A DNA stretch of 64,000 nucleotides from the NCBI GenBank assembly GCA_038314665.1, contig GCA_038314665.1_3677.1; one strand, given 5' to 3'. Of this stretch, positions 9,798 through 41,812 are shown one piece after another. The stretch comes from a phage. A model generated the notes under the pieces. It had not been told where the DNA came from and did not search any database. It saw only the letters and a list, made by a program, of their open reading frames with translations. Every line of letters begins with the position of its first letter. The stretch's first letter is position 1. The translations under genes and the position numbers were made by a program.

Positions 9798-10514
9798 ATG
9801 GCTACGCTTTATAGTGATATATTAATGGACCCACAGACAGGCGATTTGGCGATAGACAAAGGTCTTGAGTTGATAGATTCAAACCAGGTAAGTCTGCGCC
9901 AGCGCTTGTGGATGAGGTTTAATACGTGGAAGGGGAGCTGGTACTTTGACGAGTTGTTTGGCTTCCCTTATATGGACTTTCTCAGTAAGAAGGTCATGAA
10001 GACTGTTCTTGATAACAAGATTATGGAAGTGGCAAGACAAGAGCCGGATGTGCTAAACATCATAAACTTCCAGTCTACCATGGATCGAAGATCGAGAACA
10101 TACCAAGCGTTCTTTGAAGTTGTTACCAAAGAGAACGAGATTGTAAGGCTGGCTTTCGTAGGTCTTGATCAGTTTACCTACCCACAGCCTGATTCTGGGA
10201 CAACCTCTCTCTGTGATGATGAAGGTTGGATTAAGTGGGCTAATAAACTGTACTATCTGATCAACTTCAGATTGCCTAGAACCGGAGATGCCACATGGTG
10301 GAACCAGTATGCTGGTCCTGAGATGGAAAACCCGATCCCTGTAGGCTCTCTGTTGACTCAGGATAAAGATCTGCTGATGACTGAGGCAGAACAAACCATT
10401 AACCGCAATACCTGGACGCTTGCTCCAGATGAGCGCGAATACTCTGGTGTTATTGCTACCTCCAATGATGAGGCTATTGCCAACCAGTCTGGTCGTGCTA
10501 TTGATGTTAACTAA
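9798..10514 (+). CDS. baseplate wedge protein with gpW/gp25-like motif
   Basis: 238 aa; segment SLRQRLWMRFNTWKGSWYFDELFGFPY resembles the conserved core of gp25/W-family baseplate proteins (recalled consensus, not searched). Confidence 0.4.
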   Translation: MATLYSDILMDPQTGDLAIDKGLELIDSNQVSLRQRLWMRFNTWKGSWYFDELFGFPYMDFLSKKVMKTVLDNKIMEVARQEPDVLNIINFQSTMDRRSRTYQAFFEVVTKENEIVRLAFVGLDQFTYPQPDSGTTSLCDDEGWIKWANKLYYLINFRLPRTGDATWWNQYAGPEMENPIPVGSLLTQDKDLLMTEAEQTINRNTWTLAPDEREYSGVIATSNDEAIANQSGRAIDVN

Positions 10515-10523
10515 GGAGAAATC

Positions 10524-11192
10524 ATGGCTGTAGCTTATCCTACAATACCAATTCCAGATCTTGAAGATGCAGAAACAGTCCTGAGTGATGACTTCTTGGT
10601 TGTCAACCAGACTGATGGGACAAGAAAGGCGAAGATTGATGATGTTGTCAACGATCTCAGTATTACTAAAATAATCTATTTCACAGAGGGTGGTTATCTT
10701 AAGAGCAAGAAGGACTTTGCTTATGATCCAGAGACCAAGCGCTACTACACGTGGAACGGGGATTATCCTAAAATAATCCTCCCAGACTCCACTGTAGAGG
10801 GTGCTGGGGGTGTGTCTGCAAAAGCATGGTCTGTTTTTGGTGAGCTTGCTGCAACTTCTTCTGGCAGGATAGTTGATTACGGATCTATCGGTGGTCAGCT
10901 TGATATGGATCTTGAAGTTGCAGACACCTTTAAAGTTCGACTAACTTCAAATACCACAATCTCTTTTGAAAATCAAACAGAAGGTCTTGAAGGGGTGGCG
11001 AGAACTATAACCGTATGCATTACTCAGACCGCTGGCGGCAACAAAGTCTATTGGCCTGATAATGTTAAATGGGCCTACGGAAGAGATCCTATCCTAACAT
11101 TTACAGCTGGTGCAACAGACATTTTCAAGTTGGAAACCTACGACAACGGGTTAACTTGGTACGGAGCACTGATTATCGCAGGAGCTATCTAA
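10524..11192 (+). CDS. tail fibre/spike-related protein sharing N-terminal domain with the 13827 fibre
   Basis: 222 aa; N-terminus alignable with that of the 1268-aa fibre (shared positions L.V.Q.D.TR..KI.DVV and F.EGG.L....DFAY). Confidence 0.45.
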   Translation: MAVAYPTIPIPDLEDAETVLSDDFLVVNQTDGTRKAKIDDVVNDLSITKIIYFTEGGYLKSKKDFAYDPETKRYYTWNGDYPKIILPDSTVEGAGGVSAKAWSVFGELAATSSGRIVDYGSIGGQLDMDLEVADTFKVRLTSNTTISFENQTEGLEGVARTITVCITQTAGGNKVYWPDNVKWAYGRDPILTFTAGATDIFKLETYDNGLTWYGALIIAGAI

Positions 11193-11193
11193 G

Positions 11194-13791
11194 ATGCGTA
11201 TTCAACACAACATTGATAACGTATTTCAGATGATTGAGGGGCACAGGAAGTGCCTCGATAACAACACAGGTATTACCAACACCCCTACACAAAATAAGTT
11301 AGTGAACCCTGATGGTCTTATAGCTGCAGGGTGGGCAGGTAATAAGATAAATAATGATTGGGCAATGCATGAGGCCCAAGCTGTGTTGATTCTGGGGTAC
11401 ATTGAAGCATACAGGGCATCGAAAAGCGATTTCTACCTGGATAGGGCAAAAGATGCTTGGGAAGCTTACAATAGTCATCTTCTGGGTGCATATGCAGTAG
11501 AAAGTAAAATGCAAAGATTGTCCCACTACCCTCTATCCACAGACGGGGTTCCATCGCATGGTGGGTTTAAAGATGTAGTGGTGTCTTTTACCAATGGTAG
11601 AGGAAAAATCCCAGCTGGATCTCCGACATGGGGGGAATATCTGGACAAGGCATTCCAAGCGTATAACGGCGTGTTAGGAAGAAACACTGTAGACTCTGAT
11701 GTTTACGGTGGCACAGATGATAACCCAGATTGGACAACATCCGGATTAAGTTGGTGGGTTGAGTGGTATATAGCATGGGATGGTAATCGCTATTGGGCTA
11801 ACGGTAGCATAGCTGATAGTGGTCATACGTCTGTAGAGTTTGGCACAATCCAATTACAAGACAAGGGTGTTACAGGCAACCACAAAGTGACCTATTGTGT
11901 AAGATTACCTCAAGAGCAGGGTGGATCGGTGATCCCTGCTGGATCCCCTGTAATTGTGAATCCTATAAACGTGGTTGCAGACAATCAAGCCCCAGAGTTG
12001 GATGGGGAAGAAATGTGGTGTGACGCTTGTTATCAACTCTACACCTTGACAGGTGAGGAAAAGTATTACACCGCGTTTAAACAGTCTTACAACAAGTTGC
12101 TTAATTTCAGTGATATAAACGCTTACGACAAACTGTTTAGAAAGACCACGTTGATTAAGGCACCATTTACAGATGGTACTTGTCTTGTTGCAGGAACAGT
12201 TCCTGTCACGAGCAGAGACAGTGACGGGTATATCAATTTTAGAATGAACGCACGCCAGCCTTGCGAAATAATTCAAAAAGGTACCACCTACAAAATAGGC
12301 AGAGATGCTGAAATTGTCATGAATTTCGGAGGAGAGGGGGTTCTGTTCCAGCCACATTTCATCCTTAATGATGGCAACAATAACAAAAAACAGTACAGGA
12401 TAGGTGTCCCTTTTGGAGGTGCAGAGGTAACAGAAATAGTTGCCAAGGTTACCGATTTCGTAGAGGTAGTTGGTAAAGACGGTAATCCGTACCTCTTACC
12501 TAAAGAGGAAAACATTGCCGTGAGCGGTGGTGCCAGTGTTAGTATGCAGTACGATACTGACATTTACAACCACTCTGACAACTTCACCCGTTGTAATATA
12601 GCAAGAGGCAAAGTAACTTTCAATTTTGGAAGAGAGATTTCTTTAAACTCAGTAACTTATCGATCAGATGATGAGATGGTAAGGGTCAAATTTCTTGACA
12701 AAGATAGGTGGTTATGGTATGCTGATCTATATGCCACTAATGGACAATGGATAACAGAAACTCTTACTCTAGGAGATTTCAAACTAGATCCGACACAACC
12801 TCATCACACTGAAGAAGAGATTAAACCTTTCTTTGCTAATCCTAAGGGACTCACCTCTGTAGATTTCAGCCTAAGCGACAGACAGATAGGTAATGGCTTG
12901 TTTGATCTATATTGCGTCAACACACTGCCGCAATTCTATATTGCAGATAGGGATGCTTATCTAATCTGGTTTAGCGTATGGATGGCAAGCAAGACAGAAT
13001 CAACCGCTAAGGTTGGTGATTGCTATGTCAGAAACTACAAGCAAGGTGCATACAGGCACACTCCTGGTGTGTTCCCTGCCGGAAAGGTGATAGATAAGGA
13101 AAATTACCTCTTGGAGGAAAAGCCAAATTGGCCATATCCAGGTATGCAATACCCAGCAGTCTACTGTATGGGTGCAGAAAACATAGATCGCTATAGGTTG
13201 TCAAATACAATAGGCTTTCTGTATGACGCTCAAGTCTGGTATAATAACACATTTAAGACAGAGGGTCCAGTCGCCTCACGTTATGTATGGCAGAGAGGTA
13301 ATGAAGGATTAACTGGTTGGTGGGAGATGGTAGATAACTCTAAGCTCCAGTCAAGATCTTTTGTTGCTGCGTGCCGCACAATCTATGAGCTCAAGAAACA
13401 TAAAGAACCTGTTGATGAAAGATTATTCCTGTTCTGCCAGAAATGGGCATGGTTCCTCAACAGATTCCAGTCATCTCATTCAGGAAATCTACCTACAGAC
13501 TTTAACACCTCTGGGGGATATTCTTATCAAGACAGAGGAGACAGGATGTGGGTGGTAGGTGAATGGCTTGCAGGCTGCTGCTGGCTAGGTCTGTGCGGGT
13601 ATTCAGAGACAATACCACAAATAGATATTGTTGTAGAAGCCTGTGTGAAGCTACTGCAAAAGCACCACTTCATTAATGGTGATAATGTTTTAAACGGCTG
13701 CTGGGCAGTTTCTGATCCGGTGGGCTATCACTCTGGCGAAATCCTTCGCGGTCTGGGACTTTATGCTCAATACCGTGGATTGTACCTTTAA
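11194..13791 (+). CDS. large tail spike/fibre protein (possible enzymatic domain)
   Basis: 865-aa ORF with GGAG RBS; Trp/Tyr-rich, in the fibre cluster; no catalytic motif confirmed. Confidence 0.4.
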   Translation: MRIQHNIDNVFQMIEGHRKCLDNNTGITNTPTQNKLVNPDGLIAAGWAGNKINNDWAMHEAQAVLILGYIEAYRASKSDFYLDRAKDAWEAYNSHLLGAYAVESKMQRLSHYPLSTDGVPSHGGFKDVVVSFTNGRGKIPAGSPTWGEYLDKAFQAYNGVLGRNTVDSDVYGGTDDNPDWTTSGLSWWVEWYIAWDGNRYWANGSIADSGHTSVEFGTIQLQDKGVTGNHKVTYCVRLPQEQGGSVIPAGSPVIVNPINVVADNQAPELDGEEMWCDACYQLYTLTGEEKYYTAFKQSYNKLLNFSDINAYDKLFRKTTLIKAPFTDGTCLVAGTVPVTSRDSDGYINFRMNARQPCEIIQKGTTYKIGRDAEIVMNFGGEGVLFQPHFILNDGNNNKKQYRIGVPFGGAEVTEIVAKVTDFVEVVGKDGNPYLLPKEENIAVSGGASVSMQYDTDIYNHSDNFTRCNIARGKVTFNFGREISLNSVTYRSDDEMVRVKFLDKDRWLWYADLYATNGQWITETLTLGDFKLDPTQPHHTEEEIKPFFANPKGLTSVDFSLSDRQIGNGLFDLYCVNTLPQFYIADRDAYLIWFSVWMASKTESTAKVGDCYVRNYKQGAYRHTPGVFPAGKVIDKENYLLEEKPNWPYPGMQYPAVYCMGAENIDRYRLSNTIGFLYDAQVWYNNTFKTEGPVASRYVWQRGNEGLTGWWEMVDNSKLQSRSFVAACRTIYELKKHKEPVDERLFLFCQKWAWFLNRFQSSHSGNLPTDFNTSGGYSYQDRGDRMWVVGEWLAGCCWLGLCGYSETIPQIDIVVEACVKLLQKHHFINGDNVLNGCWAVSDPVGYHSGEILRGLGLYAQYRGLYL

Positions 13792-13795
13792 CATA

Positions 13796-13822
13796 GGGGG
13801 CTGTTTGCCCCCTTTCAGGAGA
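13796..13822 (+). terminator. weak hairpin terminator candidate
   Basis: GGGGGC-TGTTT-GCCCCC followed by only TTTC. Confidence 0.35.
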
Positions 13823-13826
13823 AAGA

Positions 13827-16800
13827 ATGGCTGATATTAAAGTTGTCAGAATTGAATCTCTTCCTGCCACTACCGCAGTGACAGAGGATGATTACCTGGT
13901 TGTTCAACAACCAGACCTGACCCGTCGTGTAAAAATTGGCGATGTTGTCCATGTGGATGGGACTGTTTCTCATGTAATCTCCTTTAAGGAAGGTGGTAAG
14001 TTAAACGGCCCAATGGATTTTGCCTACTTCGAAGAGGAAGACCTCTACCTGCGTTGGAAAGGCGAATTTCCACACACTGTTCCTGCACTGTCTTCACCGT
14101 ACTCCGATGGTGGGATTACTGACGCTGCATGGATGGTATATACTGATCCGTCCTTAAGGGAGGAGCTGGAATCTACCATTGGCGCATCCATGATTATGAC
14201 AGCTGAAGGTCAGTCTGTCCAGGATGTAATGGATGTTACAGTTAAGACCGCCAACGATGCTAAAGCACTTGCACAGCGGGTAGATTTTGGTACCGTGCAC
14301 ACTGTAGGCGATGTTATTCACCTTGTCAATTTTGTTGGCCCTGCAGTTATTGAAGAGGGAAGAACTACTAACTACCCTTCTGTAGCAGCTGGTGAAAAAT
14401 TCCTGAACGGTGTGGTATCTCGTCGTGATACTACAACTGTTGATGGTATTTTCCGTGGCGCTACCTCCGGAGCTATGTACACCATTGCAGTAACCAACGG
14501 TGTAGCAACAACAAAAAGAATAGCACTTCGTGATGAATTTAAACGCCTAGAGGCAAACAACCCAACAAGAACCATTATTCGTGCTGGTGATGATGTAAAC
14601 ACAGCCGGGTACTTGCAGCTTGATGCAACAGGTCGTTGGGGCATGTGGAACCAACAGACATCTTCATGGCAACCTCTTGCTGTAGAGCAAGGTGGTACAG
14701 GTGCCAGAGATGCCGCAGGTGCACGTATTAATTTAGGAACTTTTTATAAACAACGTGCAGCCCTTGAGGCAAATTTCAATATCAATAATTTGACGGGTAA
14801 TCAGGATGGTGTATACTACCAGCCGATGACTGCTAATGCAACTGAGGAAAATGGCTACCCTGCAGGTTCTGGTGCTGGTCACTTAATTGTTTGGCAGAAC
14901 AATGCTAACGGCGGTGCAGGTTGTCGTCAGGAATACTATCCATTCTCTAACGTAGATGTTTGGTATTTGAGAACCTATCAGGCCAACACAAATCAGTGGA
15001 CTGCATGGCAGCCTATGGTCAGACCTCGTAACGATGACACCTTCAGATCTCATATCGGCCTTGGTAAAAACAACTCACCAGCATTCGGGCACCTTTACTT
15101 AGCTCAATACTCTGGAGATGTTAAATCGGCCTCAGGTATTGTACACGGTGACAAGTATAATCGAGAAGGTACTCTTGAGCATGGATATCGTATCTACTCT
15201 GAAGTAAGAAACGATAATAAAGCTTGGTTAACAATACACCTCCATAAGGGAGCTACTGGTGCAGAAACACATAGATACCTCGGATTCAGAGAGGATGGTG
15301 TTTTAGATTGTCCTAAATATATGCAGGTTGGCGATCTAAATGGTCAGCTGGCAAACTGGGGACTGGCAGAGTGGATCCGTAGTTCAGGCGCTGAAAGAGG
15401 TTTCTGGGGTTCCAAGAAAGCAGCCAAAATGGTTATCTGGGACGGAGGCATGGATGAGTCTGGTAACGGCACTCTGGAATGGGGTGTTTATAACAACCGG
15501 AAGGCCAAGTGGGAACCTTTACCTCAAGCCGCAGGTGGTACTGGAGCTACAACTCTGGCAGAAGCTCAAAACCTGTTTAGAATACCTATGGCAGCAGGTG
15601 TAAAAGATTTCTTAACACTGCCAAGAACAGCAGCCATGGTGGATGGTAAATATTACCCTGTTATTGTAAGAACAGATCCGTACTATGCACCAGCTGTTGG
15701 GACAGATATTACAATAGTTACAAGATCCTCTTCTGGCAACGATCCTATGAACTGCGCAACACTCCAGTGTCATTACAGAACTGGTGGTTGGACAGACCGT
15801 GGAGACTCTTTTACTGGTGTTATAAACTTCTACCAGAACGAAAGAGCAATACTTGGTTGTGTTGCTCCTACTCGCGGAAAACAAGAGTATGTTGCTTTTT
15901 ATGTAGAGGCCAGAGCTTTCCCAGTAAGCGTATATACAAGCCGAAACGTGCTTGAGGTATTTACCAGGGAAAATGACTGGCAGGTAGGGAATGTAACTGA
16001 CAATCAGGACGGTGTTAAGTTTTGTGCTCCGTTAGAGTCAGCAGACTTAAATCTTGCGATAAAGGGTGATAATGTAACTAACACCAGATCTCTTGCGGAG
16101 TTTAAAGGAACATCAGGTTTTTACACAGGCGGTGGTACTCAGTGGCACTACATCGGCACACCTGAACGCTATGCGGTCATGAGTAAAATGACCATGCCTA
16201 AAGTTGAGCTGTGGGCAGATGGTATCGACTACCTATGCCCTGGTAGCCAGACCACAAGGAAAGCACTGTTCTCTAATGCTGGATTCCAGGCAGCATCTGA
16301 AGGTACAGAGGACTTAATTAACAACACATTTACTTCCAAATGCGGCAAGGGTGCAGGTCTGAAAGGCCAGTCAGAGTTCAGGTCTACCCCAGAGGCTGGA
16401 CAGGTAATTGTCAGAGATGTTGTTGGTTCTGCACATAAATTCTTTAACTTCAACAAAGACGGCACATTCTACCCTCCTGGAGGTTATGTTTGCCAGACAG
16501 GTGCGGATTGGAACAATCAGTTTGGTAACACGAACCCGTCAAAAATAATGGCTGGTAATGTTAACGGACCTGAAGGTTCCATGGTTGTAGCAGGGTTGTC
16601 GGTCGGTTTTTCTGGAAATTATGCATTCCAGATGGCTGGTCGTCTTGATCAGTTATACACTAGGTCTATTGAGGGTGGCAATCACAGAGCGTGGAACAAG
16701 GTAATCCAACACCGTGGTCAGGGCCTAGGGACAAACGATCTTAATGACTACAAGGGCGATAGAGAGGGTTTTTATCATCAAGAGGCCAACTCTCAAGCCA

Positions 16801-17633
16801 CACCTGAGAGAAACTACCCATGCGGACAGGCAGGTACTCTCCTTGTCTATAGAAACTATGCTAACGTTCCAGAGAGTTGCGTACAGGAATATACAACATA
16901 TCTTGGAGAAAAATTCCTGCGTTATGGAACAACGATAGGTGGTGTTTTCACATGGGGCCATTGGCAGCAGCTTGGTGGTAAGGGTATCACTTTAAAAACT
17001 CAAGGGTCCAATCTTGAACCTGAGTTCACAATACACACAGGTGGCGGTACTGATGTTACCAACACTTCAAACATGCCTTCTAATACAGGCAGGTTGTACT
17101 ATTGGGGTAATGGCGCGGATAGGAAGAATGTGCTGGAGTTCCAGATAAGTGATGACTCAACAGCCGCCAGCTGGGTATTCCACTGTGGAGCTAAGACAGA
17201 TGAGGCTAAATCAAGATATTTTGCTGTCAACGGCACGGTAGAATGTACCACTGTTAGCCAAAGTTCCGATAGAGACCTGAAGGATAATATAGAGGTCATA
17301 CCTAACGCTCTGGAAGCAATTAGAAAGATGAAAGGCTATACCTACACCTTGAAAGAGAATGGTATGCCTTATGCAGGCGTGATTGCTCAAGAGGTTATGG
17401 AAGCATTGCCAGAGGCAGTAGGATCTTTCGTGAAAAGGAAGGAAATAGAAGGTCCTACTCAAGACGGTACTCCTCTGATGACCGAGGAAAGGTTCTATAA
17501 CGTTGACTACGCAGCCGTAACAGGCTTGCTTGTCCAGGTTTGCAGGGAGCAGGATGATAAAATAACTGCCCTTGAGGAGCAGGTTAAAAAATTAACGGAG
17601 GTTGTTACTGGGTTGCAAGAGAAACTGAAGTAA
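13827..17633 (+). CDS. tail fibre/spike with C-terminal intramolecular chaperone (peptidase S74-like) domain
   Basis: 1268 aa; C-terminus SDRDLKDNIEVIPNALEAIRKMKGYTYTL...AGVIAQEVMEALPEAV matches the self-cleaving chaperone domain known from endosialidases and L-shaped tail fibres; terminal coiled coil. Confidence 0.65.
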   Translation: MADIKVVRIESLPATTAVTEDDYLVVQQPDLTRRVKIGDVVHVDGTVSHVISFKEGGKLNGPMDFAYFEEEDLYLRWKGEFPHTVPALSSPYSDGGITDAAWMVYTDPSLREELESTIGASMIMTAEGQSVQDVMDVTVKTANDAKALAQRVDFGTVHTVGDVIHLVNFVGPAVIEEGRTTNYPSVAAGEKFLNGVVSRRDTTTVDGIFRGATSGAMYTIAVTNGVATTKRIALRDEFKRLEANNPTRTIIRAGDDVNTAGYLQLDATGRWGMWNQQTSSWQPLAVEQGGTGARDAAGARINLGTFYKQRAALEANFNINNLTGNQDGVYYQPMTANATEENGYPAGSGAGHLIVWQNNANGGAGCRQEYYPFSNVDVWYLRTYQANTNQWTAWQPMVRPRNDDTFRSHIGLGKNNSPAFGHLYLAQYSGDVKSASGIVHGDKYNREGTLEHGYRIYSEVRNDNKAWLTIHLHKGATGAETHRYLGFREDGVLDCPKYMQVGDLNGQLANWGLAEWIRSSGAERGFWGSKKAAKMVIWDGGMDESGNGTLEWGVYNNRKAKWEPLPQAAGGTGATTLAEAQNLFRIPMAAGVKDFLTLPRTAAMVDGKYYPVIVRTDPYYAPAVGTDITIVTRSSSGNDPMNCATLQCHYRTGGWTDRGDSFTGVINFYQNERAILGCVAPTRGKQEYVAFYVEARAFPVSVYTSRNVLEVFTRENDWQVGNVTDNQDGVKFCAPLESADLNLAIKGDNVTNTRSLAEFKGTSGFYTGGGTQWHYIGTPERYAVMSKMTMPKVELWADGIDYLCPGSQTTRKALFSNAGFQAASEGTEDLINNTFTSKCGKGAGLKGQSEFRSTPEAGQVIVRDVVGSAHKFFNFNKDGTFYPPGGYVCQTGADWNNQFGNTNPSKIMAGNVNGPEGSMVVAGLSVGFSGNYAFQMAGRLDQLYTRSIEGGNHRAWNKVIQHRGQGLGTNDLNDYKGDREGFYHQEANSQATPERNYPCGQAGTLLVYRNYANVPESCVQEYTTYLGEKFLRYGTTIGGVFTWGHWQQLGGKGITLKTQGSNLEPEFTIHTGGGTDVTNTSNMPSNTGRLYYWGNGADRKNVLEFQISDDSTAASWVFHCGAKTDEAKSRYFAVNGTVECTTVSQSSDRDLKDNIEVIPNALEAIRKMKGYTYTLKENGMPYAGVIAQEVMEALPEAVGSFVKRKEIEGPTQDGTPLMTEERFYNVDYAAVTGLLVQVCREQDDKITALEEQVKKLTEVVTGLQEKLK

Positions 17634-17640
17634 CTGTTTT

Positions 17641-17670
17641 GCCCTCGCTTCGGCGGGGGCTTTTTGTTTG
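17641..17670 (+). terminator. rho-independent terminator
   Basis: GCCCTCGC-TTCG-GCGGGGGC hairpin followed by TTTTTGTTTG. Confidence 0.8.
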
Positions 17671-17672
17671 TA

Positions 17673-17701
17673 TTGCGTATTAACTCAAAATCTGGTAAAA
17701 T
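17673..17701 (+). promoter_or_regulatory. sigma70-like promoter with extended -10 (TTGCGT-N17-TGgTAAAAT)
   Basis: -35 TTGCGT 17673-17678, 17-nt spacer, -10 TAAAAT 17696-17701 preceded by TGG; same TGGTAAAATA motif as at 3548 and 22967. Confidence 0.5.
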
Positions 17702-17732
17702 AACTATCATGATTGTTTAACCTGGAGGCACA

Positions 17733-18323
17733 ATGTTTTTATGGGAAAGGCCTAGATACCTTCCAGATATTAGATTGGAGCTGCTGGCAGATATTGTTAC
17801 GTTTAAAAGTCCGTTTACAGGTAAAACGCAAAAAGTAACCTATGCCACACCTAACTGGAAAGGCACTTTGACGGTTTCCAATATCAGCGAGTCACAGTTG
17901 CTAGAGCTTAAGAGCTTTGTTGATCAGGTGTATAAAGATGGGAACATATTTCTCATTAAAACTTACGGTCACTCAGTAACAGCTAATGAGCCAATCGCCC
18001 TTGGGCCTACTGGTAACGACGATTTTTTGAAGACGGTTGGGTGGGAGCCAAACAGAGACATAGCTAGAGCTGGGGATAAAATATCTGTCAATGATGAATT
18101 GAAAGTGGTAACAGCTCCAGTACGCAGCGATGGTGTTGGGTCTGCTGTTATAAGCATATCTCCAAGACTTAGAAAACCTATTGCCGCAGGGGATACTATG
18201 AAGATAATAACTCAATCCCCAAAGGGTAGGTTTCATATCAGAGATATTTATAAAATTAAGCAAAAAGTCGATGCTATGCAAAAAGGTGATAATATAGTTA
18301 TCAACTTCTTTGAGGATTTCTAA
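17733..18323 (+). CDS. hypothetical tail-tip protein
   Basis: 196-aa ORF with GGAGG RBS; first gene of a tail-tip-like operon; no motif. Confidence 0.4.
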   Translation: MFLWERPRYLPDIRLELLADIVTFKSPFTGKTQKVTYATPNWKGTLTVSNISESQLLELKSFVDQVYKDGNIFLIKTYGHSVTANEPIALGPTGNDDFLKTVGWEPNRDIARAGDKISVNDELKVVTAPVRSDGVGSAVISISPRLRKPIAAGDTMKIITQSPKGRFHIRDIYKIKQKVDAMQKGDNIVINFFEDF

Positions 18324-18324
18324 G

Positions 18325-18876
18325 ATGATTAGAGCGCCATTAGATAATTTATTTCTTGAGAAGCTGGAGCTTGATGGTGTTGAGATCTTAATTGCTGCAA
18401 AGCTAGAGCTACCGACAGGGACTGTCAGGGTGTGCTCAGGCACTGGTGTTGTAGTAATTGAGGGTCAACATTTTATAGGGATAGGTGGATCAGCAACATT
18501 AACTGCTGTGTCTGAGAAAGATGCCACCAACTTCGGATCTGTGGTAGCAACATTGAACGGGTTTGATCCTAAGTATGTTGGTGATCTACTGAAGACGGAG
18601 TATTCTGGTTGTCGTGCCACGTTGTACATTACCGCTATGGAGAATGGTCTGCCTGTTACAACTAATGGTTTGTTTGACGGCCTTATAACAGATATGGCTA
18701 TTCAGACAGGTGAGAACAGTGCTTTGTCCATATCCATCTCTTCCATCTTCAACAGTTGGTTAAGAGGTTTTCCTTATCGGTACACGGAGGAAAGCCACAG
18801 CTCAAGAAACGATAATGACAGATTTTTTAAATATGTGGATCAGGTGGCGAGCCGCCCGATCATTTGGGAGGTTTAA
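18325..18876 (+). CDS. hypothetical tail-tip protein
   Basis: Track ORF begins at a TTG (18310); ATG 18325 with GAGGA RBS preferred. Confidence 0.4.
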   Translation: MIRAPLDNLFLEKLELDGVEILIAAKLELPTGTVRVCSGTGVVVIEGQHFIGIGGSATLTAVSEKDATNFGSVVATLNGFDPKYVGDLLKTEYSGCRATLYITAMENGLPVTTNGLFDGLITDMAIQTGENSALSISISSIFNSWLRGFPYRYTEESHSSRNDNDRFFKYVDQVASRPIIWEV

Positions 18877-19301
18877 TGAGCACACATCCTCGTTTAGTAG
18901 ATTGGCAAGAAAGATTGTGGAAAGTGTTTGACGAAGAGGCCACCATACCTTTTGAATGGGGATTCCACGATTGTTGCACCTTTGCAGCCAAGTGCGTTGA
19001 TGCCCAGTACGGAACAGATTTTCTTTCTAACTTCGAAGGAACGTATAAAACAGAGTTGGAAAGCAAAAGATGGTGCATGCTCCGTTTCAAAACCACACAC
19101 CTGCCTACTATTTTTGATCTCTTTATGACTCGGCTGGATACTCATAAACAGGTTCAGCGTGGAGATATTGTCATTTTCGAAGGTCTGAACGGGCTCACCG
19201 CTGGTGTGTTCTGGAACAACCAGATTTGGGCGAAAGGTGATAAAGGGGTCTTTATGTTCGACATGAAAGATTCTATCGTTGTTGATGTCTGGAGGTATTA
19301 A
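18876..19301 (+). CDS. NlpC/P60-like putative tail-associated peptidase (gpK-like)
   Basis: Motifs WGFHDCCTF (Cys-containing) and RGDIVIFEG resemble NlpC/P60 peptidase cores; ATG 18876 chosen over the TTG at 18864. Confidence 0.4.
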   Translation: MSTHPRLVDWQERLWKVFDEEATIPFEWGFHDCCTFAAKCVDAQYGTDFLSNFEGTYKTELESKRWCMLRFKTTHLPTIFDLFMTRLDTHKQVQRGDIVIFEGLNGLTAGVFWNNQIWAKGDKGVFMFDMKDSIVVDVWRY

Positions 19302-22300
19302 TGCCAATTGCAATGATTGATAACATCGTTGCTTCTGCAAGATCTTCAAGTTATGACTGGAACGCATCCAAGGCAGCTCTGGCTGACAGCCTGAACACTG
19401 TTACCACCAGAACTCTGGATAAGATTTTTGAGGGCAACAAATCTTACAGAAGTCAGCAAGATAGACAAAAGCTTCTCAGATCTTCTGCTGCACCCTGCTC
19501 TGTAGTGTATGGGAAGACACGCACGTCTGGGCTGCTTGCGTTTTTGGAGCAGGACAGAGACAGAACCCTCCATTGTGCCATTGTTCTTGCTAATCATCCT
19601 CTGGAAGGTATAGAAGACATACTCATCGACGGTAATCCTATTTCCTCGTATGGAGATCTGGTATCGTGGGAGCTACATAACGACAGAAAAACATCTGATC
19701 CTTTCATGGGTACACACTGCCCATCGTGGTCACCAGATATGATAGGCAGAGGTATCAGTTGGCTGCGTGCCAGCTTCAAGTTTGACCCCAGTAAGTTTCC
19801 TTTTGGGTTGCCAAACGTTACACTGGTCAAGGTTGGTAAAAAATGCTATGACCCCCGCATCAGTAAAGAGGTGTATACCAATAACGCGGCCTTGGTGATC
19901 CTGGACTATTTAAGAACGTACCTTAAATGTCCTGACGAAACCATCAACTGGGAGTCCTTTAGGGAGGCTGCCAATATATGCGACGAGGCGGTAAAAAACG
20001 CTGACGGAACCAGTGAGCGACGTTACACCATTAACGGTGAGTTTGACATGGATGAGGCCCCAGCAAGTATTATGGCAGAAATGCTGAAAGCTTGCGGTGC
20101 AGACCTTAGTTATGTTGCTGGTAAGTATGGTTTGCTGGTTGGTGCATACTATGGCCCAGCAACAATGACACTGAGTGAGGATTGTGTCTGTGGTGAGGTC
20201 AAGATCTATCCGGAAGCCTCCTTTGACAAGAGATCCAACACAATAACTGGCAGATTCACTAGTCCGACCAAAGGGTATTCTGAAACAGATTTTCCATCAG
20301 TGTTTGTCCCAGAGTGGATAGAGAAGGATGGAGAAAGAAAGATAATTGATATAGACTATCGCTTTGTTACCAGTCCTTATCAAGCTCAGCGTGTTTCTGC
20401 AATCTTCTTAAGACGTGCTAGAGCTGGCAGGATTATTGAAGTCACCTGCAATATGCGAGGTTTTAAATTTAAACCTGGCCGTTACGTTACAATGGACCTT
20501 CCAAGTATTGGTATAGTAGGCCAAGAAATGAGGGTTCTTGAATGGGAGTTCACCAAAAAGGGCGGTGTCAAGGTAAAACTTCGTCAAGATGCTAAAGAGT
20601 GGAATGATGCCACAGGGCAACTTCCGGATTCTGGTGATGTAGATATTCCGATATCTCCATCTGGTGTAGCTCAACCGCAAAACTTCAGATATTCCGTTCT
20701 CCAAGCCGGGGAAGTAACTCACGGTGTTTTGGCTTGGGACAACGTTGGAACTTACGCTCAAAATATTGTGCAGGTAAGAAAGAACGGAGAGATTGTTTGG
20801 ACAGCACAGACAGTTGAGCAGTTTGTCCGAGTAGAAGGCTTGACCAAAGGATCATACACAGCAACCGTGGTTGCAACATCTTATAAAGGTGGTGTATCTC
20901 CAGAAGCGTACTGCGAGTTCAACATTCAGGCACCTGAAGCTCCTGTTTCTGTGGAAGTTAAGCAGGGATACTTTGCTATTACCCTGATCCCGCACAGCAG
21001 AGACTTGGCTAGTGTAAGCACCCAGTACGACTTTTGGACATCTGGGATGACAAGATTGCCAGATACCAGTGATGTAACAGTTACTTCAAAAGCCACTCGT
21101 ATGGGTGTTGGTTCAACTTGGACATCTGAAGGTCTGCAGAACGATAAGATTTATTACTGGTATATCAGGACAACAAATGCTTTTGGTTCATCTGCTTTTG
21201 TGGAGTGTGCAGCCCACTGTTACACATCCATAGAAGATCTTATGCCACAGATTGATGCTGAGTTCAAAAAGACAGAGACTTATAAAGAGCTTACCGCCAA
21301 TCTTGATAATGCAGTCAAGGAAATGGATAAAAATGTTGGTGCAGTCAATGACCGTGTTACTAGCATTTTTGAAGAGCTTGGGGATACAATAGAGGGTGTT
21401 GTCAGAGAGACGACAGAAAAATTTACAGGGGTTAATGGAGAAATTTCTGCCCTTAACAGTAAGCTGGTAGCAGCTCAGCAATCCTTTGACGATAAACTTG
21501 CAGCAGAGTCTGGTAGGCTTGGGTCACTAATCGAGACAACAAATAGATCAACCGTTGATCTTGTTAATCGTAAAACTCAAGCATTGAGTGAGCAAATAAC
21601 TGCAACTCAAGGTACTCTGCGGGAAGAGTTGAAGAACACTGAGAGCAAACTTAACTCCTCTATTCAAGAAACCAACAAGGCAACAACCGATCTGCTAAGT
21701 AAGACAACGGAAGCTATTAAGCAGGATCTGGTGGCAGCTACAGGGAAGATCACCAAGCTGGAAGATGATGTGCAGAAAGAGGTTGCCAATCTGCAAGCAT
21801 CTATTCAAGAAACTAATAGTACAACAGTTGATCTTGTTAATAATACAGCCACAGCGATCCGTCAAGAACTTACCTCTGCAAAACAAGAAATTGTTGACGA
21901 AATGGGTAATATTGATGAGCTCAGGGCTACAGTATCTAATACCTCTAAAGCTGTAACAACACTTGAGGGTAAAATAGATGCTCAGTGGGGAGCTAAGATT
22001 CAGGTTGACAGCCATGGTAATAAATATGTGGCAGGTATCCAGCTGGGCATGGAGGGGTCTGGAGGACAAGTTCAATCATACTTCATGGTTAGTGCAAACA
22101 ACTTTGCGGTATATAACCCCGGAAATGGAACAGCAACCCTTGCTTTCGCAATCAAGAACAACCAAGCGTTCTTGAAAGACGCTTTTATAGAGAATGGCAC
22201 GATCTCCTCTGCCAAGATCGCACAAGAAATTTCGTCAAACAACTACGATGGCAACGGGTACCATAAATACGGTTGGTATATTAACAAGAACGGGCATGCC

Positions 22301-22900
22301 CAATTTATGGATGTGTGGGTGAAAGGCAACATCAACGCCAGTTCTGGTAACTTCACAGGGGCAGTTAATGCCACTAGTGGTACCTTCCGTGGAGATGTTT
22401 ATGCCAATAATGGTAGCTTTAGAGGCACCATAGATGCAACCGGAGGTACATTCCGTGGTCGTGTAGAAGCTTCTGTTATCCGTGCTAACCAGTTCGAAGG
22501 TGCAATTGTTGCACACAGGACTTACGGAGATTGTGCTCCAGTGCATAACTCCCAGCAGAGGGTTTGCCGTTGGAGGTGGAGATACGTAGATAACGTTTCA
22601 GGTCAAGGTAAGAACGTAACATTCTTCTTTAAACTGAACGGTACTCGTGCCAACTCCCAACTAAATGCGTGGATAGCTGGTCATCAACTCCTTGCTGGCA
22701 AGAAGTACGGGAACGACAACGATGGCATGTGTGCAATTGGGATAACAGGTCTAGGTGAACAAACTATAGACATTATTATTGAAATCTACACCCCGTGGTC
22801 AACGTCAAACGTGACAGGTGTCACAATCTCCTGTCCCACTGTGATCGTTAGTCGTTCTAACTCAAGCTTCCAGGGACCTTGGAACGAGTCTCACGACTAA
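19301..22900 (+). CDS. large tail tip/host-specificity protein (gpJ-like) with coiled-coil repeats and C-terminal fibre repeats
   Basis: 1199 aa; central region resembles J-type tail tip proteins; internal repeats (IQETN..TVDLVN), GTFRG-type C-terminal repeats. Confidence 0.5.
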   Translation: MPIAMIDNIVASARSSSYDWNASKAALADSLNTVTTRTLDKIFEGNKSYRSQQDRQKLLRSSAAPCSVVYGKTRTSGLLAFLEQDRDRTLHCAIVLANHPLEGIEDILIDGNPISSYGDLVSWELHNDRKTSDPFMGTHCPSWSPDMIGRGISWLRASFKFDPSKFPFGLPNVTLVKVGKKCYDPRISKEVYTNNAALVILDYLRTYLKCPDETINWESFREAANICDEAVKNADGTSERRYTINGEFDMDEAPASIMAEMLKACGADLSYVAGKYGLLVGAYYGPATMTLSEDCVCGEVKIYPEASFDKRSNTITGRFTSPTKGYSETDFPSVFVPEWIEKDGERKIIDIDYRFVTSPYQAQRVSAIFLRRARAGRIIEVTCNMRGFKFKPGRYVTMDLPSIGIVGQEMRVLEWEFTKKGGVKVKLRQDAKEWNDATGQLPDSGDVDIPISPSGVAQPQNFRYSVLQAGEVTHGVLAWDNVGTYAQNIVQVRKNGEIVWTAQTVEQFVRVEGLTKGSYTATVVATSYKGGVSPEAYCEFNIQAPEAPVSVEVKQGYFAITLIPHSRDLASVSTQYDFWTSGMTRLPDTSDVTVTSKATRMGVGSTWTSEGLQNDKIYYWYIRTTNAFGSSAFVECAAHCYTSIEDLMPQIDAEFKKTETYKELTANLDNAVKEMDKNVGAVNDRVTSIFEELGDTIEGVVRETTEKFTGVNGEISALNSKLVAAQQSFDDKLAAESGRLGSLIETTNRSTVDLVNRKTQALSEQITATQGTLREELKNTESKLNSSIQETNKATTDLLSKTTEAIKQDLVAATGKITKLEDDVQKEVANLQASIQETNSTTVDLVNNTATAIRQELTSAKQEIVDEMGNIDELRATVSNTSKAVTTLEGKIDAQWGAKIQVDSHGNKYVAGIQLGMEGSGGQVQSYFMVSANNFAVYNPGNGTATLAFAIKNNQAFLKDAFIENGTISSAKIAQEISSNNYDGNGYHKYGWYINKNGHAQFMDVWVKGNINASSGNFTGAVNATSGTFRGDVYANNGSFRGTIDATGGTFRGRVEASVIRANQFEGAIVAHRTYGDCAPVHNSQQRVCRWRWRYVDNVSGQGKNVTFFFKLNGTRANSQLNAWIAGHQLLAGKKYGNDNDGMCAIGITGLGEQTIDIIIEIYTPWSTSNVTGVTISCPTVIVSRSNSSFQGPWNESHD

Positions 22901-22908
22901 CCTTTAAA

Positions 22909-22935
22909 GCCCCGCTTCGGCGGGGTTTATTTTTA
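22909..22935 (+). terminator. rho-independent terminator
   Basis: GCCCCGC-TTCG-GCGGGG hairpin followed by TTTATTTTTAT. Confidence 0.8.
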
Positions 22936-22943
22936 TGCTCAGA

Positions 22944-22972
22944 TTGACTATTGTTACAAAATTTGGTAAAAT
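22944..22972 (+). promoter_or_regulatory. sigma70-like promoter with extended -10 (TTGACT-N17-TGgTAAAAT)
   Basis: -35 TTGACT 22944-22949, 17-nt spacer, -10 TAAAAT 22967-22972. Confidence 0.55.
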
Positions 22973-23005
22973 ACCTTGTAGAGATTTTCATACCGGAGGA
23001 GTGAC

Positions 23006-24496
23006 GTGGCTAAGTATGGATTGACAGAGGCTGGTTTCGTTATACCAACCCTAAATGACCTAATCGTTGAAACTAAGCAAAGCCTGATCCGTGCTTTTGG
23101 CGAAAACTTCAACGTACAGAGTAACTCCGTTGCAGATAAGCTGACCACTATCTTCAACGAGCGAGAGTATCAACTTATTCTTATGGCAGCATCTGTATAC
23201 GCATCACAGACGCTGTATGGGGCAGAAGGTATTTACCTAGACGAACTTCTTGGAAGACGGGGTATTTACCGAAGAGGCCGTTCTAAATCATCAGGTACCT
23301 GCCAGTTGACGATCAACACAACTGTTCCGTACAATATGATTTACGATTCCAAAACTTATACGTTGGATAGTGGCAACTTTGTTCTTAGCAATGATGTGCA
23401 AGTAGCAGGGAATCTTATTGCTCACAGAATAAATGCTCCAGACCTAAGGATTGGTAAATACAACTTTCAAATTACCAACCAGACAGATGGAAGTATCAAA
23501 ACAAAAAGTCTGGTTTTAACAGATAAGGCTCTGGACTCTTCTGATCTGCCAAGCTTTTACGGAGAGATTAAGCAATTCATTGTCGATAATACAACTCTGT
23601 TGAACGACGATTTGATTCAGATCGATATGTTGACAGGAACGTTGTGGATAGGGTACAATTCGAATCTTGACCAAGTTGGACTTAATAGTAGGGTAGATTT
23701 CAGAGTATCCCCGATTGTAGGGGAAAGAACTATCACCCTAGATGTTATCGCTAACGAGGCTGGTGAGCTGTCAAGAGAGGCAGAAACCGTGACAACAATG
23801 TCACCTACTCCCAGTGGATTTATCAAGCTTACCAACCGAGAAAGATTCAATGAGGGAAGGGATGTTGAGAAAGACTCAGAGTACCGCTTAAGAGCTTCCA
23901 GCACAAAACAGTTAACATCTAAGGCTACCCGTCCTGCAATCCTTAGCGCTGTAAGCGAGGTGAAAGGTGTTGAGAAAGTGAGAGTGTTCTCTAACAATAC
24001 CGATAAAACTGATGCTAAAGGTATACCTCCTTACAAGTTCCAAGTGGTTGTGTTTGGTGGTGCAACAGAGGACATTTGCCAAGCACTTTACCAAACTATA
24101 GCCTGTACGAACAGGACTTATGGTAATATTTTCTACGATGTAACTACATCTGACGGTCAAACTGAAAGAATTTATTATTCCAAGGCAAATACCTACCGCC
24201 TGGATGTAAGAATTACCTACTCCGGTGCTGCGCTTTCCACAACCGAAAAAGATGCCATTGTAGAGGCTCTTTTGCAGGTTGTTAACGGACTGGATGTTGC
24301 AGATACGTTGTACAATATCCAATTGGTCGGTGCTGCATCTGCTGCTGTGTCGATAGGCAGATTTAATAGACTGGTAATTCAAGTTAAACCTGTAGGGGCT
24401 TCTGATGAAGCTTACACTGCAAACGATATTGTTGCAAACATGACCGAGGTGTTTGACCTCGATGAAAGTAATATAACTTTCCAACAAACTATTTAA
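23006..24496 (+). CDS. baseplate wedge protein (gpJ/gp6-like)
   Basis: 496 aa; N-terminal and central segments resemble baseplate J family proteins; GTG start with GGAGGA RBS. Confidence 0.55.
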   Translation: MAKYGLTEAGFVIPTLNDLIVETKQSLIRAFGENFNVQSNSVADKLTTIFNEREYQLILMAASVYASQTLYGAEGIYLDELLGRRGIYRRGRSKSSGTCQLTINTTVPYNMIYDSKTYTLDSGNFVLSNDVQVAGNLIAHRINAPDLRIGKYNFQITNQTDGSIKTKSLVLTDKALDSSDLPSFYGEIKQFIVDNTTLLNDDLIQIDMLTGTLWIGYNSNLDQVGLNSRVDFRVSPIVGERTITLDVIANEAGELSREAETVTTMSPTPSGFIKLTNRERFNEGRDVEKDSEYRLRASSTKQLTSKATRPAILSAVSEVKGVEKVRVFSNNTDKTDAKGIPPYKFQVVVFGGATEDICQALYQTIACTNRTYGNIFYDVTTSDGQTERIYYSKANTYRLDVRITYSGAALSTTEKDAIVEALLQVVNGLDVADTLYNIQLVGAASAAVSIGRFNRLVIQVKPVGASDEAYTANDIVANMTEVFDLDESNITFQQTI

Positions 24497-24507
24497 GGCG
24501 GCGAGAT

Positions 24508-25194
24508 ATGGCAGAGATTAAGTCGGATGTTAACCACATCCACACTCTGCCAGATTTTGTTCAGGGGGGTCTTGACTACCTGCCTGGAGATTTTCTGGCT
24601 GAGAAGGTTAATTTAGTCACATTCTTAACCGTGTACCTTAAAAGGTTGGAGGATGTTGATAAGATGCTGGTAGGTTTGGCTGAAGGAAGATTGCTTAACA
24701 ATGCCAGCGGAAGATACCTTGACGAAGTTGGTAATCAACTCGGTATTCTTAGGAATGGACTTTCAGATGCTGATTTTCGTGCCACACTAATTATTCAGCA
24801 GGCCGCAGCATCAAGGGGCGGGACTCGCGAAGATGTCATCTCCACCTTGCGACAATTGTTCGGAAGAGACAATTTCGATACGTGGAAAGGAGACAACTTC
24901 AGGTTTGACATAAATATTAGAAAAACTTGCTTTGACATATTGCAGTCTATTGATCAGATCTTAGACATGCTACCACTGCCTTGTCATTTGCGTCTTACAG
25001 AATCGCAAGGGCAAGCTTTTGGTTTTGAAGGTGACTCTACAGCTCTTGGCTTCGGATCAGTGTGGGAAGAAAGCCAATTCGGAGTTGGTGGGCTGGCTAC
25101 TTTGCTGTATGTTCCTGACGTAAGACCTGATTGGGACACCACAACCATTTATTGTGAAAGTATTACAGTAAACGCAACTAGACAGGAGGGTTAA
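24508..25194 (+). CDS. baseplate protein (tail protein I-like)
   Basis: 228-aa ORF directly after the J-like gene, the usual position of gpI-type wedge proteins. Confidence 0.4.
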   Translation: MAEIKSDVNHIHTLPDFVQGGLDYLPGDFLAEKVNLVTFLTVYLKRLEDVDKMLVGLAEGRLLNNASGRYLDEVGNQLGILRNGLSDADFRATLIIQQAAASRGGTREDVISTLRQLFGRDNFDTWKGDNFRFDINIRKTCFDILQSIDQILDMLPLPCHLRLTESQGQAFGFEGDSTALGFGSVWEESQFGVGGLATLLYVPDVRPDWDTTTIYCESITVNATRQEG

Positions 25195-28333: not shown

Positions 28334-28918
28334 ATGAAAATACTTCAAGAGTTTAAACTTTACCAACCGGGATCTGGCGAATACCTCCCCAACAAGGGAA
28401 CCAAGGAGCTGACCCCTCAAGAGGTTGAGGATTACACTGCATACACTGGGTATTTTTTACGTAATGATGATGGCGATTGGTATGTGCAGTCACGAACATT
28501 ACGACAAGAAAATCCTGGTTGTATCTTCCTACTTGTTGACGAGAAGGGAATTCTTAAGACATCTACAGAAGAACCTGATGCCCTATGGCCTGCTCCAGGT
28601 CTTCGTGTGGTTATCGCCAAAAAAGAAGAGGTACCAGAAAACATTATGCTTCACCACGACGCTTTGCGTTTAGTTGGTGATGAATTTGTCACAGACAATG
28701 AATTCTTTGTTCAACAGGCAGAGGGTGTCATAGAGACAGAACTTGCTTGGGCTACTGCTAGAATTGGTGCCTATCAAGACATGATTGACCTTGAATATGA
28801 TCTTACTGATGACCAGAAACGTAACATCAGAGATTTGAAAATGTACAGGGTAAAACTTCTTGAAATAGATACATCTAAAGCCCCTGACATTTTCTTCCCG
28901 GAGCGACCTACCCTCTAA
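28334..28918 (+). CDS. tail fibre assembly protein (Tfa-like chaperone)
   Basis: 194 aa; C-terminal RDLKMYRVKLLEIDTSKAPDIFFPERP resembles the conserved C-terminus of tail fibre assembly proteins; directly downstream of a fibre gene. Confidence 0.6.
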   Translation: MKILQEFKLYQPGSGEYLPNKGTKELTPQEVEDYTAYTGYFLRNDDGDWYVQSRTLRQENPGCIFLLVDEKGILKTSTEEPDALWPAPGLRVVIAKKEEVPENIMLHHDALRLVGDEFVTDNEFFVQQAEGVIETELAWATARIGAYQDMIDLEYDLTDDQKRNIRDLKMYRVKLLEIDTSKAPDIFFPERPTL

Positions 28919-29285: not shown

Positions 29286-29333
29286 TCACTAAAGTGTTAA
29301 AATAGTCCTAAGGAATTTTCTCAGGAGAACGTG

Positions 29334-38086: not shown

Positions 38087-38094
38087 CAGGAGGC

Positions 38095-38130
38095 AAATAA
38101 AAAAGGGGCCGTTTGGCCCCTTTCTTTTTA
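38095..38130. terminator. bidirectional rho-independent terminator between convergent genes
   Basis: AGGGGCC-GTTT-GGCCCCT hairpin flanked by an A-run upstream and T-run downstream. Confidence 0.8.
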
Positions 38131-38133
38131 TAA

Positions 38134-38334: not shown

Positions 38335-38337
38335 TTC

Positions 38338-38784: not shown

Positions 38785-38909
38785 AGATCTGATGTTAGGG
38801 TCAAGCTTAATTTTAAACTATTTTGGAGAGGTATTTTGTTCAGGAGGGTAATCACATAGGATAGGGCAATTTATGAAGGCACAGGCCTCTTTTGAGGCCT
38901 TAAAATCGA

Positions 38910-39293: not shown

Positions 39294-39324
39294 TTAATCA
39301 GTCTCCATCTAGAAAGCAATACTT

Positions 39325-39495: not shown

Positions 39496-39499
39496 GCTC

Positions 39500-40867: not shown

Positions 40868-40869
40868 GA

Positions 40870-41811: not shown

Positions 41812-41812
41812 A

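Follow-up and report, generated by a model that had tools for sequence, protein, structure and literature searches.

A complete siphovirus-type tail-tip operon within the baseplate locus of an rV5-like Vequintavirus

The solved tail tips of the siphophages lambda, T1 and T5 are cones composed of a hexameric distal tail protein (Dit), a trimeric hub of the gpL type and a trimeric protein in which hub and central fibre are combined; lambda gpL and T1 gp36 carry an iron-sulfur (Fe-S) cluster domain at the C-terminus (PMC11945409). The tip proteins are gpM-gpL-gpK-gpI-gpJ in lambda and gp37-gp36-gp35-gp34-gp33 in T1, while T5 has a single protein that unites the gpL-like and gpJ-like parts of the hub, with the central fibre (pb4) and the receptor-binding protein (RBP, pb5) as separate proteins. 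Genes g12-g15 of the gene transfer agent (GTA) RcGTA run in the order Dit, hub, small peptidase-position protein and large multi-domain tip protein, and g14 is a recognised NlpC/P60 peptidase. In Seuratvirus siphophages (Queuovirinae) a tip operon, genes 17-20 in vB_EcoS_SA126VB, follows the tape measure gene and encodes the sole tail tip, and an RBP/exclusion locus has been described downstream of it. Here we describe a complete operon of the lambda/T5 type located in the baseplate locus of a contractile-tailed phage, namely the four genes at 17733-22900 (hereafter the cassette) of contig GCA_038314665.1_3677.1 from NCBI GenBank assembly GCA_038314665.1. The whole 64,000-nucleotide stretch analysed is referred to as the window, and the locus under study extends from 9798 to 25194.

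In SA126VB the tape measure gene is directly followed by genes for proteins of 194, 194, 144 and 879 amino acids, and these match the window proteins of 196, 183, 141 and 1199 amino acids one-to-one and in the same order. Identities are 31% for the first gene after the tape measure, 38% for gene 18, 46% for the 'peptidase' and 54% for J. The likeness thus covers the number of genes, their order, their near-equal sizes and the overlap of starts and stops. The same succession of a tape measure gene, two proteins of about 195 amino acids, one of about 140 and a large protein also occurs in PY54 (Yersinia) and in Vibrio, Pseudomonas and Roseobacter siphophages. The set stands directly behind the tape measure in all five siphophage relatives, whereas here it is found 11 kb past the end of the myovirus tape measure gene (4385-6724), among baseplate genes and with a wedge gene following directly where Seuratvirus has its RBP/exclusion locus. 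These comparisons indicate that the cassette was acquired horizontally, and the Queuovirinae (Seuratvirus) siphophages are the closest lineage on the donor side among those sampled. An earlier reading of the window, made from sequence only, had noted a resemblance of 17733-22900 to a siphovirus tail-tip operon with a large J-like protein, and the collinear homology bears this out. Three of the four products can in addition be linked directly to solved siphophage tip proteins, these being the Dit, the gpL-type hub (by fold) and the large protein, which corresponds to the hub of T5 pb3 and lambda gpJ together with the central fibre of lambda gpJ.

The product of the first cassette gene was assigned as a Dit of the T5 pb9 type. 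Its 70-sequence profile matched the DT57C Dit (8hqz_H) over near full length at E=1.4e-4 and T5 pb9 at E=0.02; an AlphaFold2 (AF2) model made from a shallow alignment was unusable, with a predicted local distance difference test (pLDDT) score of 36.5. For gene 2 the AF2 model, from a 58-sequence alignment, reached a pLDDT of 74 with low confidence in the C-terminal 35 residues. By fold match this protein is a putative gpL-type hub subunit with a predicted tube-like fold, given Foldseek hits to T5 pb3 (7.5e-7), JBD30 (1.5e-5), lambda gpL (8iyk_L, 3.9e-5), Chi (2e-4), RcGTA (3.7e-4) and T1 (9l9p_J, 3.7e-4), followed at lower rank by the hub domains of myoviruses and contractile injection systems (CIS), in E217, Pa193, phiTE and Mu gp44. 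Its relatives carry the name DUF2163. The 183-amino-acid protein contains only two Cys, so that a four-Cys Fe-S site is not possible, and the C-terminal Fe-S cluster domain of gpL-type proteins is lacking. The likely true starts of genes 2 and 3 are ATG 18325 and ATG 18876, which corrects the earlier coordinates.

For gene 3, formerly placed at 18864, the earlier label NlpC/P60-like is not confirmed. DUF6950 (PF22262) matches six of six members of its family, yet none of the six matched an NlpC/P60 model at E<=1 and the PDB profile search was also empty. In the six-sequence alignment the Cys of a WG-x-DC motif is invariant and no His is. The protein is a positional analogue of lambda gpK only. 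Pairwise BLASTP of the three small cassette proteins against lambda gpM, gpL and gpK gave no similarity, phmmer against PDB chains gave noise only, and six-sequence profiles of genes 1-3 found no meaningful PDB matches; the profiles that worked against PDB were the deeper Dit profile and the profile of the J N-terminus. Local hhalign of the family alignments against single lambda M, L, K and I sequences and against the phage's own tube initiator returned probabilities below 1%, and word-indexed homologue searches with single proteins returned near-identical sequences only. No gene of the gpI type was recognised, the cassette holding only four open reading frames (ORFs) and hhalign against lambda gpI (one family compared) giving no similarity. 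The Seuratvirus cassette likewise has no fifth gene.

The fourth gene encodes the large protein, which begins with a hydrophilic N-terminus (residues 1-47) and continues with a hub (about 48-490), Ig/FN3 domains (493-652), a variable coiled coil (about 650-900), Phage_Tail_Tip (878-1017) and a C-terminal domain that runs to residue 1199. Pfam recognises Ig_J, Ig_J_second and Phage_Tail_Tip, and residues 497-665 and 874-1036 align with lambda gpJ 666-991 at about 30% identity. The N-terminal family profile matched the T5 baseplate hub protein pb3 at E=3.5e-17 and the lambda J hub (264-486) at E=8e-4. Phage-tail_3 was found in six of six family members, with the window protein alone scoring E=0.09. 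In GenBank records the gene already bears the label 'central tail fiber J' or 'tip attachment protein J'. For rV5 gp37, HHpred matches to hub-like proteins were pointed out by Kropinski et al., and in RBPseg the N-terminal region of the J-like class is described as 'common in central tail fibers'.

Two ends of the large protein set it apart from its Seuratvirus counterpart, as does its longer coiled coil. The siphophage homologues begin with a hydrophobic segment rich in Gly and Ala, and their maximum Kyte-Doolittle value over 19 residues at the J N-terminus is 1.7-2.2 in five of five cases against 0.31 here; the segment has been lost in the window protein, where positions 1-45 include 9 charged residues. 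In a search of the window, residues 1-55 of this new J N-terminus gave no anchoring motif in common with another protein. In one siphophage record the hydrophobic segment is annotated 'TMhelix' (one of these J homologues lies at L003 8848-11487). At the other end the window protein has an extra domain of about 180 amino acids, absent in SA126VB and weakly related (29%) to the C-terminus of JenK1 J. In related siphophages a C-terminal extension of a J-like protein can substitute for a separate RBP. When the window is aligned with rV5, identity is about 99-100% in the hub and Ig region (1-650), drops to 44-66% in the coiled-coil stalk (651-900), where the lengths differ by 80 amino acids, and is 86-90% over the last 100 residues. 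This map of stalk and tip variation agrees with the BASEL paper, where the J-like gene is one of three allelically variable fibre genes of Vequintavirus. In phage Pr121LW, whose record is the closest in the database (MH752840.1 74339-75662), the 3' end of the J-like gene contains a tandem duplication of about 130 bp relative to window positions ~22589-22721, and the annotated coding sequence (CDS) there ends early; it could be either an assembly artefact or a real variant, and the window, like Bas58, has the intact 1199-amino-acid form.

Measured against the described systems, the cassette shares with lambda and T1 the roles of Dit, gpL-type hub and gpJ-type hub with Ig/FN3 domains and central fibre. 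It differs from lambda in its Dit, which is of the larger T5 pb9 type whereas the lambda gpM type has 109 amino acids, in a shorter gpL-like protein without the Cys set of the Fe-S domain, and in a K-position protein that belongs to DUF6950 and has no recognisable MPN+NlpC/P60 arrangement. Among solved structures, the best matches came from T5 and DT57C, both for the Dit profile and for the N-terminal hub of J (pb3) and the gpL-like fold (N-terminal part of pb3). Unlike T5, the cassette divides the hub over two proteins, of which the larger also carries the fibre. With RcGTA the cassette shares the four-role layout, the fold match of the 183-amino-acid protein to GTA virion chain 6tba_7A, the DUF2163 name among gene 2 family members and a GTA-annotated match to the J N-terminus, although the sequence relationship is remote only and the counterpart of g14 is the DUF6950 protein.

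The window belongs to a Vequintavirus, an rV5-like contractile-tailed myovirus of E. coli. Region 9798-25194 is 99.6% identical to Escherichia phage vB_EcoM-Pr121LW, 95% to Bas58 and about 95% to many other rV5-like Vequintavirus phages, and 112 phage records contain a single match spanning at least 80% of it. Pr121LW and Bas58 are both classified as Vequintavirus murica, and this near-identity places the window in the genus. Eighteen GenBank records named 'Campylobacter phage', for which Campylobacter jejuni is given as host, show 93-99% identity with E. coli Vequintaviruses over the region, and their host attribution looks doubtful. All genes of interest lie on the plus strand in a dense late-gene array. 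Upstream of the locus are the tape measure, a tube initiator with a Dit_like domain (6801) and a plug of the Pam3-gp18 type (7724), followed by the hub (8104), the spike (9108), the W-like gene, the fibre genes (starting at 10524, 11194 and 13827), the cassette, the Baseplate_J wedge gene, its I-type partner and more fibre genes (Table 1). Apart from the cassette, the phage itself encodes every canonical baseplate component once.

Table 1. Features of the cassette and of the surrounding baseplate locus, in window coordinates
Feature	Position	Strand	Evidence or remark
Cassette gene 1, distal tail protein (Dit), T5 pb9 type, 196 aa	17733..18323	+	phrog_1302 'distal tail protein', E=2e-50
Cassette gene 2, putative gpL-type tail-tip hub subunit, 183 aa	18325..18876	+	AF2 and Foldseek
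Cassette gene 3, DUF6950 protein in gpK position, 141 aa	18876..19301	+	Pfam PF22262, E=2e-32
Cassette gene 4, hub and central-fibre protein (lambda gpJ / T5 pb3 / T1 gp33 type), 1199 aa	19301..22900	+	Pfam, profiles
Intrinsic terminator closing the fibre genes	17641..17660	+	GCCCTCGCTTCGGCGGGGGC and T-run
Promoter-like element TTGCGT-N17-TAAAAT, extended -10 (TGGTAAAAT)	17673..17701	+	Sequence
Intrinsic terminator closing the cassette	22907..22928	+	AAGCCCCGCTTCGGCGGGGTTT and T-run
Promoter-like element TTGACT-N17-TAAAAT (TG-extended) ahead of the wedge genes	22944..22972	+	Equivalent gap conserved in EC152 and CR9
W-like baseplate protein of the sheath-initiator type, 238 aa	9798..10514	+	phrog_120 'baseplate wedge subunit', E=1e-20
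Fibre/adaptor protein, 222 aa, Tail_spike_N	10524..11192	+	PF18668, E=3e-10; phrog_7760 tail fiber
Tail/fibre protein, 865 aa	11194..13791	+	phrog_2871
Fibre, 1268 aa, Tail_spike_N anchor and C-terminal S74 chaperone domain, allelically variable	13827..17633	+	Pfam
Baseplate wedge protein, J / gp6 type, 496 aa	23006..24496	+	Pfam Baseplate_J PF04865, E=3.1e-9
Baseplate wedge protein, I type, 228 aa	24508..25194	+	PHROG 'baseplate protein' phrog_4056, E=3e-103

The Baseplate_J wedge gene and its I-type partner are adjacent, as in the simple myovirus baseplates of the P2/Mu type, but the W-J-I contiguity of that type is not kept. Between the W-like gene and the J/I-type wedge genes there is a block of 12.4 kb (10524-22900), made up of three fibre-type genes with Tail_spike_N and Peptidase_S74 domains (10524-17633) and the cassette. 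This separation, together with the positions and classes of the three baseplate genes, had been recognised in the sequence-only reading and stands; so does its premise that W, J and I genes are usually adjacent, which in this subfamily is true of Certrevirus CR9. To place the block we compared the baseplate loci of CR9, Seunavirus EC152, Phapecoctavirus ESCO13 and the phi92-like phage KMB37. In CR9 the W-like, J and I genes abut, while in EC152, ESCO13 and KMB37 the interval from W to J is filled by between three and seven genes for fibres. All four loci retain the seven core baseplate proteins. By contrast, the four cassette genes have zero homologues in any of them, and the genes at 17733-22900 do not fall into standard myovirus baseplate families; in the synteny comparison the cassette is missing from the four myovirus loci and collinear with the siphophages. 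Because Seunavirus, Phapecoctavirus and phi92-like phages have two of the fibre genes in common with the window, the W|J split must be older than Vequintavirus. Across the rV5/phi92 group, adsorption modules have been inserted repeatedly in the W|J interval, and the cassette is an extra layer over the older split, specific to Vequintavirus among the four relatives checked. The mosaic origin proposed earlier for the adsorption apparatus is therefore well supported, with the refinement that the split is older than the cassette and shared with phi92-type phages.

Within Vequintavirus the cassette appears to be universal. The J-like N-terminus was found in 117 records (at least 95% identity) against 118 for the wedge gene, the odd one being a 5.6-kb fragment. 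None of the sampled matches less than 60% identical to the J N-terminus came from a genome of 140-152 kb. The phi92 authors reported no such J-type fibre candidate among the proteins they screened.

The axial and wedge proteins of the phage correspond to those of phi92, in which the baseplate (gp134-gp147) has been resolved using cryo-electron microscopy (cryo-EM) and the tail axis is filled by the tube initiator, plug, hub, Fe-loaded spike and the tape measure protein (TMP) C-terminus (PMC13450770). The two phages have homologous core baseplate genes in one and the same order, and the axial set is kept, homologues of phi92 gp135-138 (central hub and spike) being conserved. The 9798 protein is a homologue of the product of the gene after the spike, with 70% identity in EC152, 56% in CR9 and 24% in KMB37; the Pfam GPW_gp25 model gave no match to it. 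Its phi92 counterpart, gp139, was defined as sheath initiator by cryo-EM (PMC13450770), and in phi92 too it lies apart from the wedge genes gp145 and gp146 with fibre genes in between. The 23006 wedge protein, a homologue of gp145, is 60, 52, 33 and 32% identical to its counterparts in EC152, CR9, ESCO13 and KMB37, and the 24508 protein, positional homologue of wedge gp146, is 64, 52, 30 and 29% identical. What phi92-like genomes do not have at this locus is the Dit/hub/DUF6950/J cassette. Compared with the four cassette-free relatives, the W-like protein is longer at its C-terminus by 27-61 amino acids and the I-type wedge protein by 14-19; these tails are candidate docking sites for extra Vequintavirus fibres or for the module.

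Which genes build which Vequintavirus fibres is still unsettled (BASEL paper; RBPseg). Homologues of the 222-amino-acid fibre protein are found in EC152, ESCO13 and KMB37, and the 865-amino-acid protein is 34-35% identical over full length to proteins of Seunavirus, Phapecoctavirus and phi92-like phages. The relatives have counterparts of the 1268-amino-acid fibre for the N-terminal ~100 amino acids only, and its amino acid identity to Bas58 and rV5 is 93%, with a synonymous divergence (dS) of about 0.5. Directly downstream of the I-type gene, window 25194-27266 encodes a 690-amino-acid protein with the Pfam 'non-contractile tail sheath protein' TIM-barrel and N-terminal domains and Calx-beta. 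Whereas this gene follows the wedge genes here, Phapecoctavirus and phi92-like phages have its homologue (42-43% identity) upstream of theirs, which indicates that fibre genes have been rearranged around the wedge pair. Further along are two paralogous Mu-type short tail fibre genes (27279-28319 and 29331-30377), present as a single copy in relatives, with a 'Caudo_TAP' tail-fibre assembly gene of the lambda gpK family (28334-28918) between them. After a gene for a fibre of 1875 amino acids (32459-38086), negative GC skew at about 38000-46000 marks a block of genes on the opposite strand.

The cassette is bounded by regulatory elements of the phage's own types. Its genes abut or overlap, with stop/start junctions TAAgATG, TAATG and TAATG that imply translational coupling. 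Downstream of each of the two flanking terminators, both of them strong, are a TG-extended -10 element and a GGAGG ribosome-binding site, the one ahead of the cassette at 17724-17728. On this basis the cassette is a predicted self-contained late transcription unit with promoter and terminator of the phage's usual kinds. A 15-nt motif, AAATNTGGTAAAATA, is found in the window only in the gap upstream of the cassette, within the 17673-17701 element, and at 22959. The shorter TGGTAAAAT occurs six times on the plus strand (23, 3545, 6613, 17693, 22964 and 34405), for the most part within or close to gaps between genes of the late region; with one TGATAAAAT variant included, the searched pattern has seven matches against 1.8 expected by chance, and the element may be part of the phage's late promoter signature. 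We also considered the flanking terminator/promoter gaps as an insertion scar or duplication and rejected this, since TGGTAAAAT and the terminator cores recur elsewhere in the window and the gap before the wedge genes is conserved in cassette-free relatives. The flanking elements are read as normal regulatory elements of the phage and do not prove a mechanism.

The cassette genes are conserved in more than 110 phage genomes with ratios of nonsynonymous to synonymous divergence (dN/dS) of 0-0.16, and are thus real genes and not chance ORFs. When the window was compared with Bas58 and an rV5 derivative, dN/dS was 0-0.07 for the three small genes (DUF6950 alone, 0.02-0.07), and the J-like gene gave 0.05-0.16; the wedge genes fall in the same range. 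The Dit-like and hub-like proteins are 100% identical in amino acid sequence between the window, Bas58 and rV5 despite dS of 0.06-0.11. The cassette is under strong purifying selection. The J-like protein has also been seen in particles, mass spectrometry of purified rV5 virions having detected gp37 with four peptides, including the fully tryptic GYSETDFPSVFVPEWIEK from the hub region.

What such a module does on a phage that already has a baseplate can be narrowed down from the axis. Tube initiator, plug, hub, spike and TMP of the phage itself take up the tail axis, and by this reasoning the module cannot serve as the DNA conduit. The cassette most likely encodes an accessory receptor-binding organelle, a horizontally acquired tail-tip module kept as its own unit, and we hold this with moderate confidence. 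The J-type protein would trimerise, and its hub, with a trimer of the gpL-like protein and probably a ring of the Dit-like protein, would form a closed 'mini tail tip'. Docked at the periphery of the baseplate or at the tip of another fibre, it would act as a further receptor-binding organelle, for which the coiled-coil stalk of variable length and the C-terminal domain would together provide reach and specificity. Loss of the hydrophobic N-terminal segment fits a role in adsorption and not one in membrane or channel formation. Whether complete cones of Dit ring, gpL-like trimer and J trimer are mounted off-axis in this manner is a narrower proposition, which we put forward tentatively and regard as possible but doubtful. 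It would mean that a whole tube-capping complex has been repurposed for receptor binding and that a Dit ring nucleates on a partner other than the tail tube. In the RBPseg maps there is unassigned density attached to the head domain of one Vequintavirus fibre, a candidate location for such a cone. Several points weigh against the proposed organelle. With the AF2 model unusable, the Dit assignment leans on a profile match whose significance is modest (E=1.4e-4), and the 31-54% identities point either to an old transfer or to an unsampled source. In the rV5 proteome the four gp37 peptides cover 4.2% only and gp38-40 are not among the 19 proteins, so that incorporation of the Dit-like and hub-like proteins is unproven. 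Neither structural nor genetic work puts a cassette protein on the virion, and the RBPseg cryo-EM of two Vequintaviruses located three fibres only, the J-like class not among them. A Dit ring normally docks on a ring of the tail tube and no peripheral docking partner is known.

The main rival takes the absence of gp38-40 from the rV5 mass spectrometry at face value, with the J-like protein alone in the virion as a lateral or accessory fibre and the Dit-like, gpL-like and DUF6950 proteins as scaffolds or chaperones that trimerise and mount it and are missing from mature particles. The solved lambda and T1 tips do not contain lambda gpK, which by position is the analogue of the DUF6950 protein (PMC11945409), and tight translational coupling suits co-assembly factors. 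However, Dit and gpL-type proteins are stoichiometric and complete the hub cone in every solved lambda-like tip (PMC11945409), the rV5 proteome is shallow enough for gp37 itself to be near the detection limit, and full amino acid conservation of the Dit-like and hub-like proteins over that synonymous divergence is typical of structural interfaces. We consider incorporation of the J-like protein alone rather unlikely. The remaining explanations are poorly supported. The module could sit on the tail axis, with cone and fibre below the spike or replacing it in some or all particles, for envelope penetration: the axis is the sole known location of such complexes (PMC11945409), a Dit ring is built for a tube-like ring, and the phage's tube initiator is itself Dit-like (PF21821). 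Against this, the complete axial set is kept and conserved with phi92, where cryo-EM shows the axis filled, cassette-free relatives work with the same set, and the J-like protein is without the hydrophobic N-terminal segment typical of siphophage homologues, which makes an axial position highly improbable. A functionless remnant of recombination with a siphophage is less probable still. Four related genera do without the cassette, which is dispensable in that sense, and gp37 is of low abundance in virions, but the four ORFs are intact in about 117 genomes with dN/dS equal to that of essential baseplate genes, they have their own promoter/terminator pair and coupled translation, and the J-like protein is present in virions. 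Least probable of all is the reading of the 17733-22900 genes as diverged representatives of the usual myovirus baseplate families. The gpL-type fold does resemble myovirus and CIS hubs at lower rank, a tube-like fold being common to all these hubs; yet each canonical baseplate component is already encoded once, no cassette homologue exists in the related myovirus loci examined, the best sequence and fold matches are siphophage tip proteins, and the cassette is in one-to-one synteny with the siphophage genes after the tape measure.

In the literature searched, no paper was found in which the four genes are seen as a single, complete tail-tip operon of siphovirus kind, in which the cassette is shown to be Vequintavirus-specific within its group, or in which the question is raised where a Dit/hub/J assembly would sit on a myovirus. 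Phages of the rV5 type count among the broad-host-range coliphages that are isolated most often, and cocktails for biocontrol and therapy make use of them. Treating the cassette as one transplanted module predicts which of its proteins assemble together, gives solved templates (lambda, T1, T5) for modelling the complex, and defines a clean unit for deletion or swapping, with a promoter and a terminator of its own as boundaries. The cassette also offers a clear natural case of modules being exchanged between tail morphotypes, and it poses the structural question of how a tube-capping complex attaches elsewhere.

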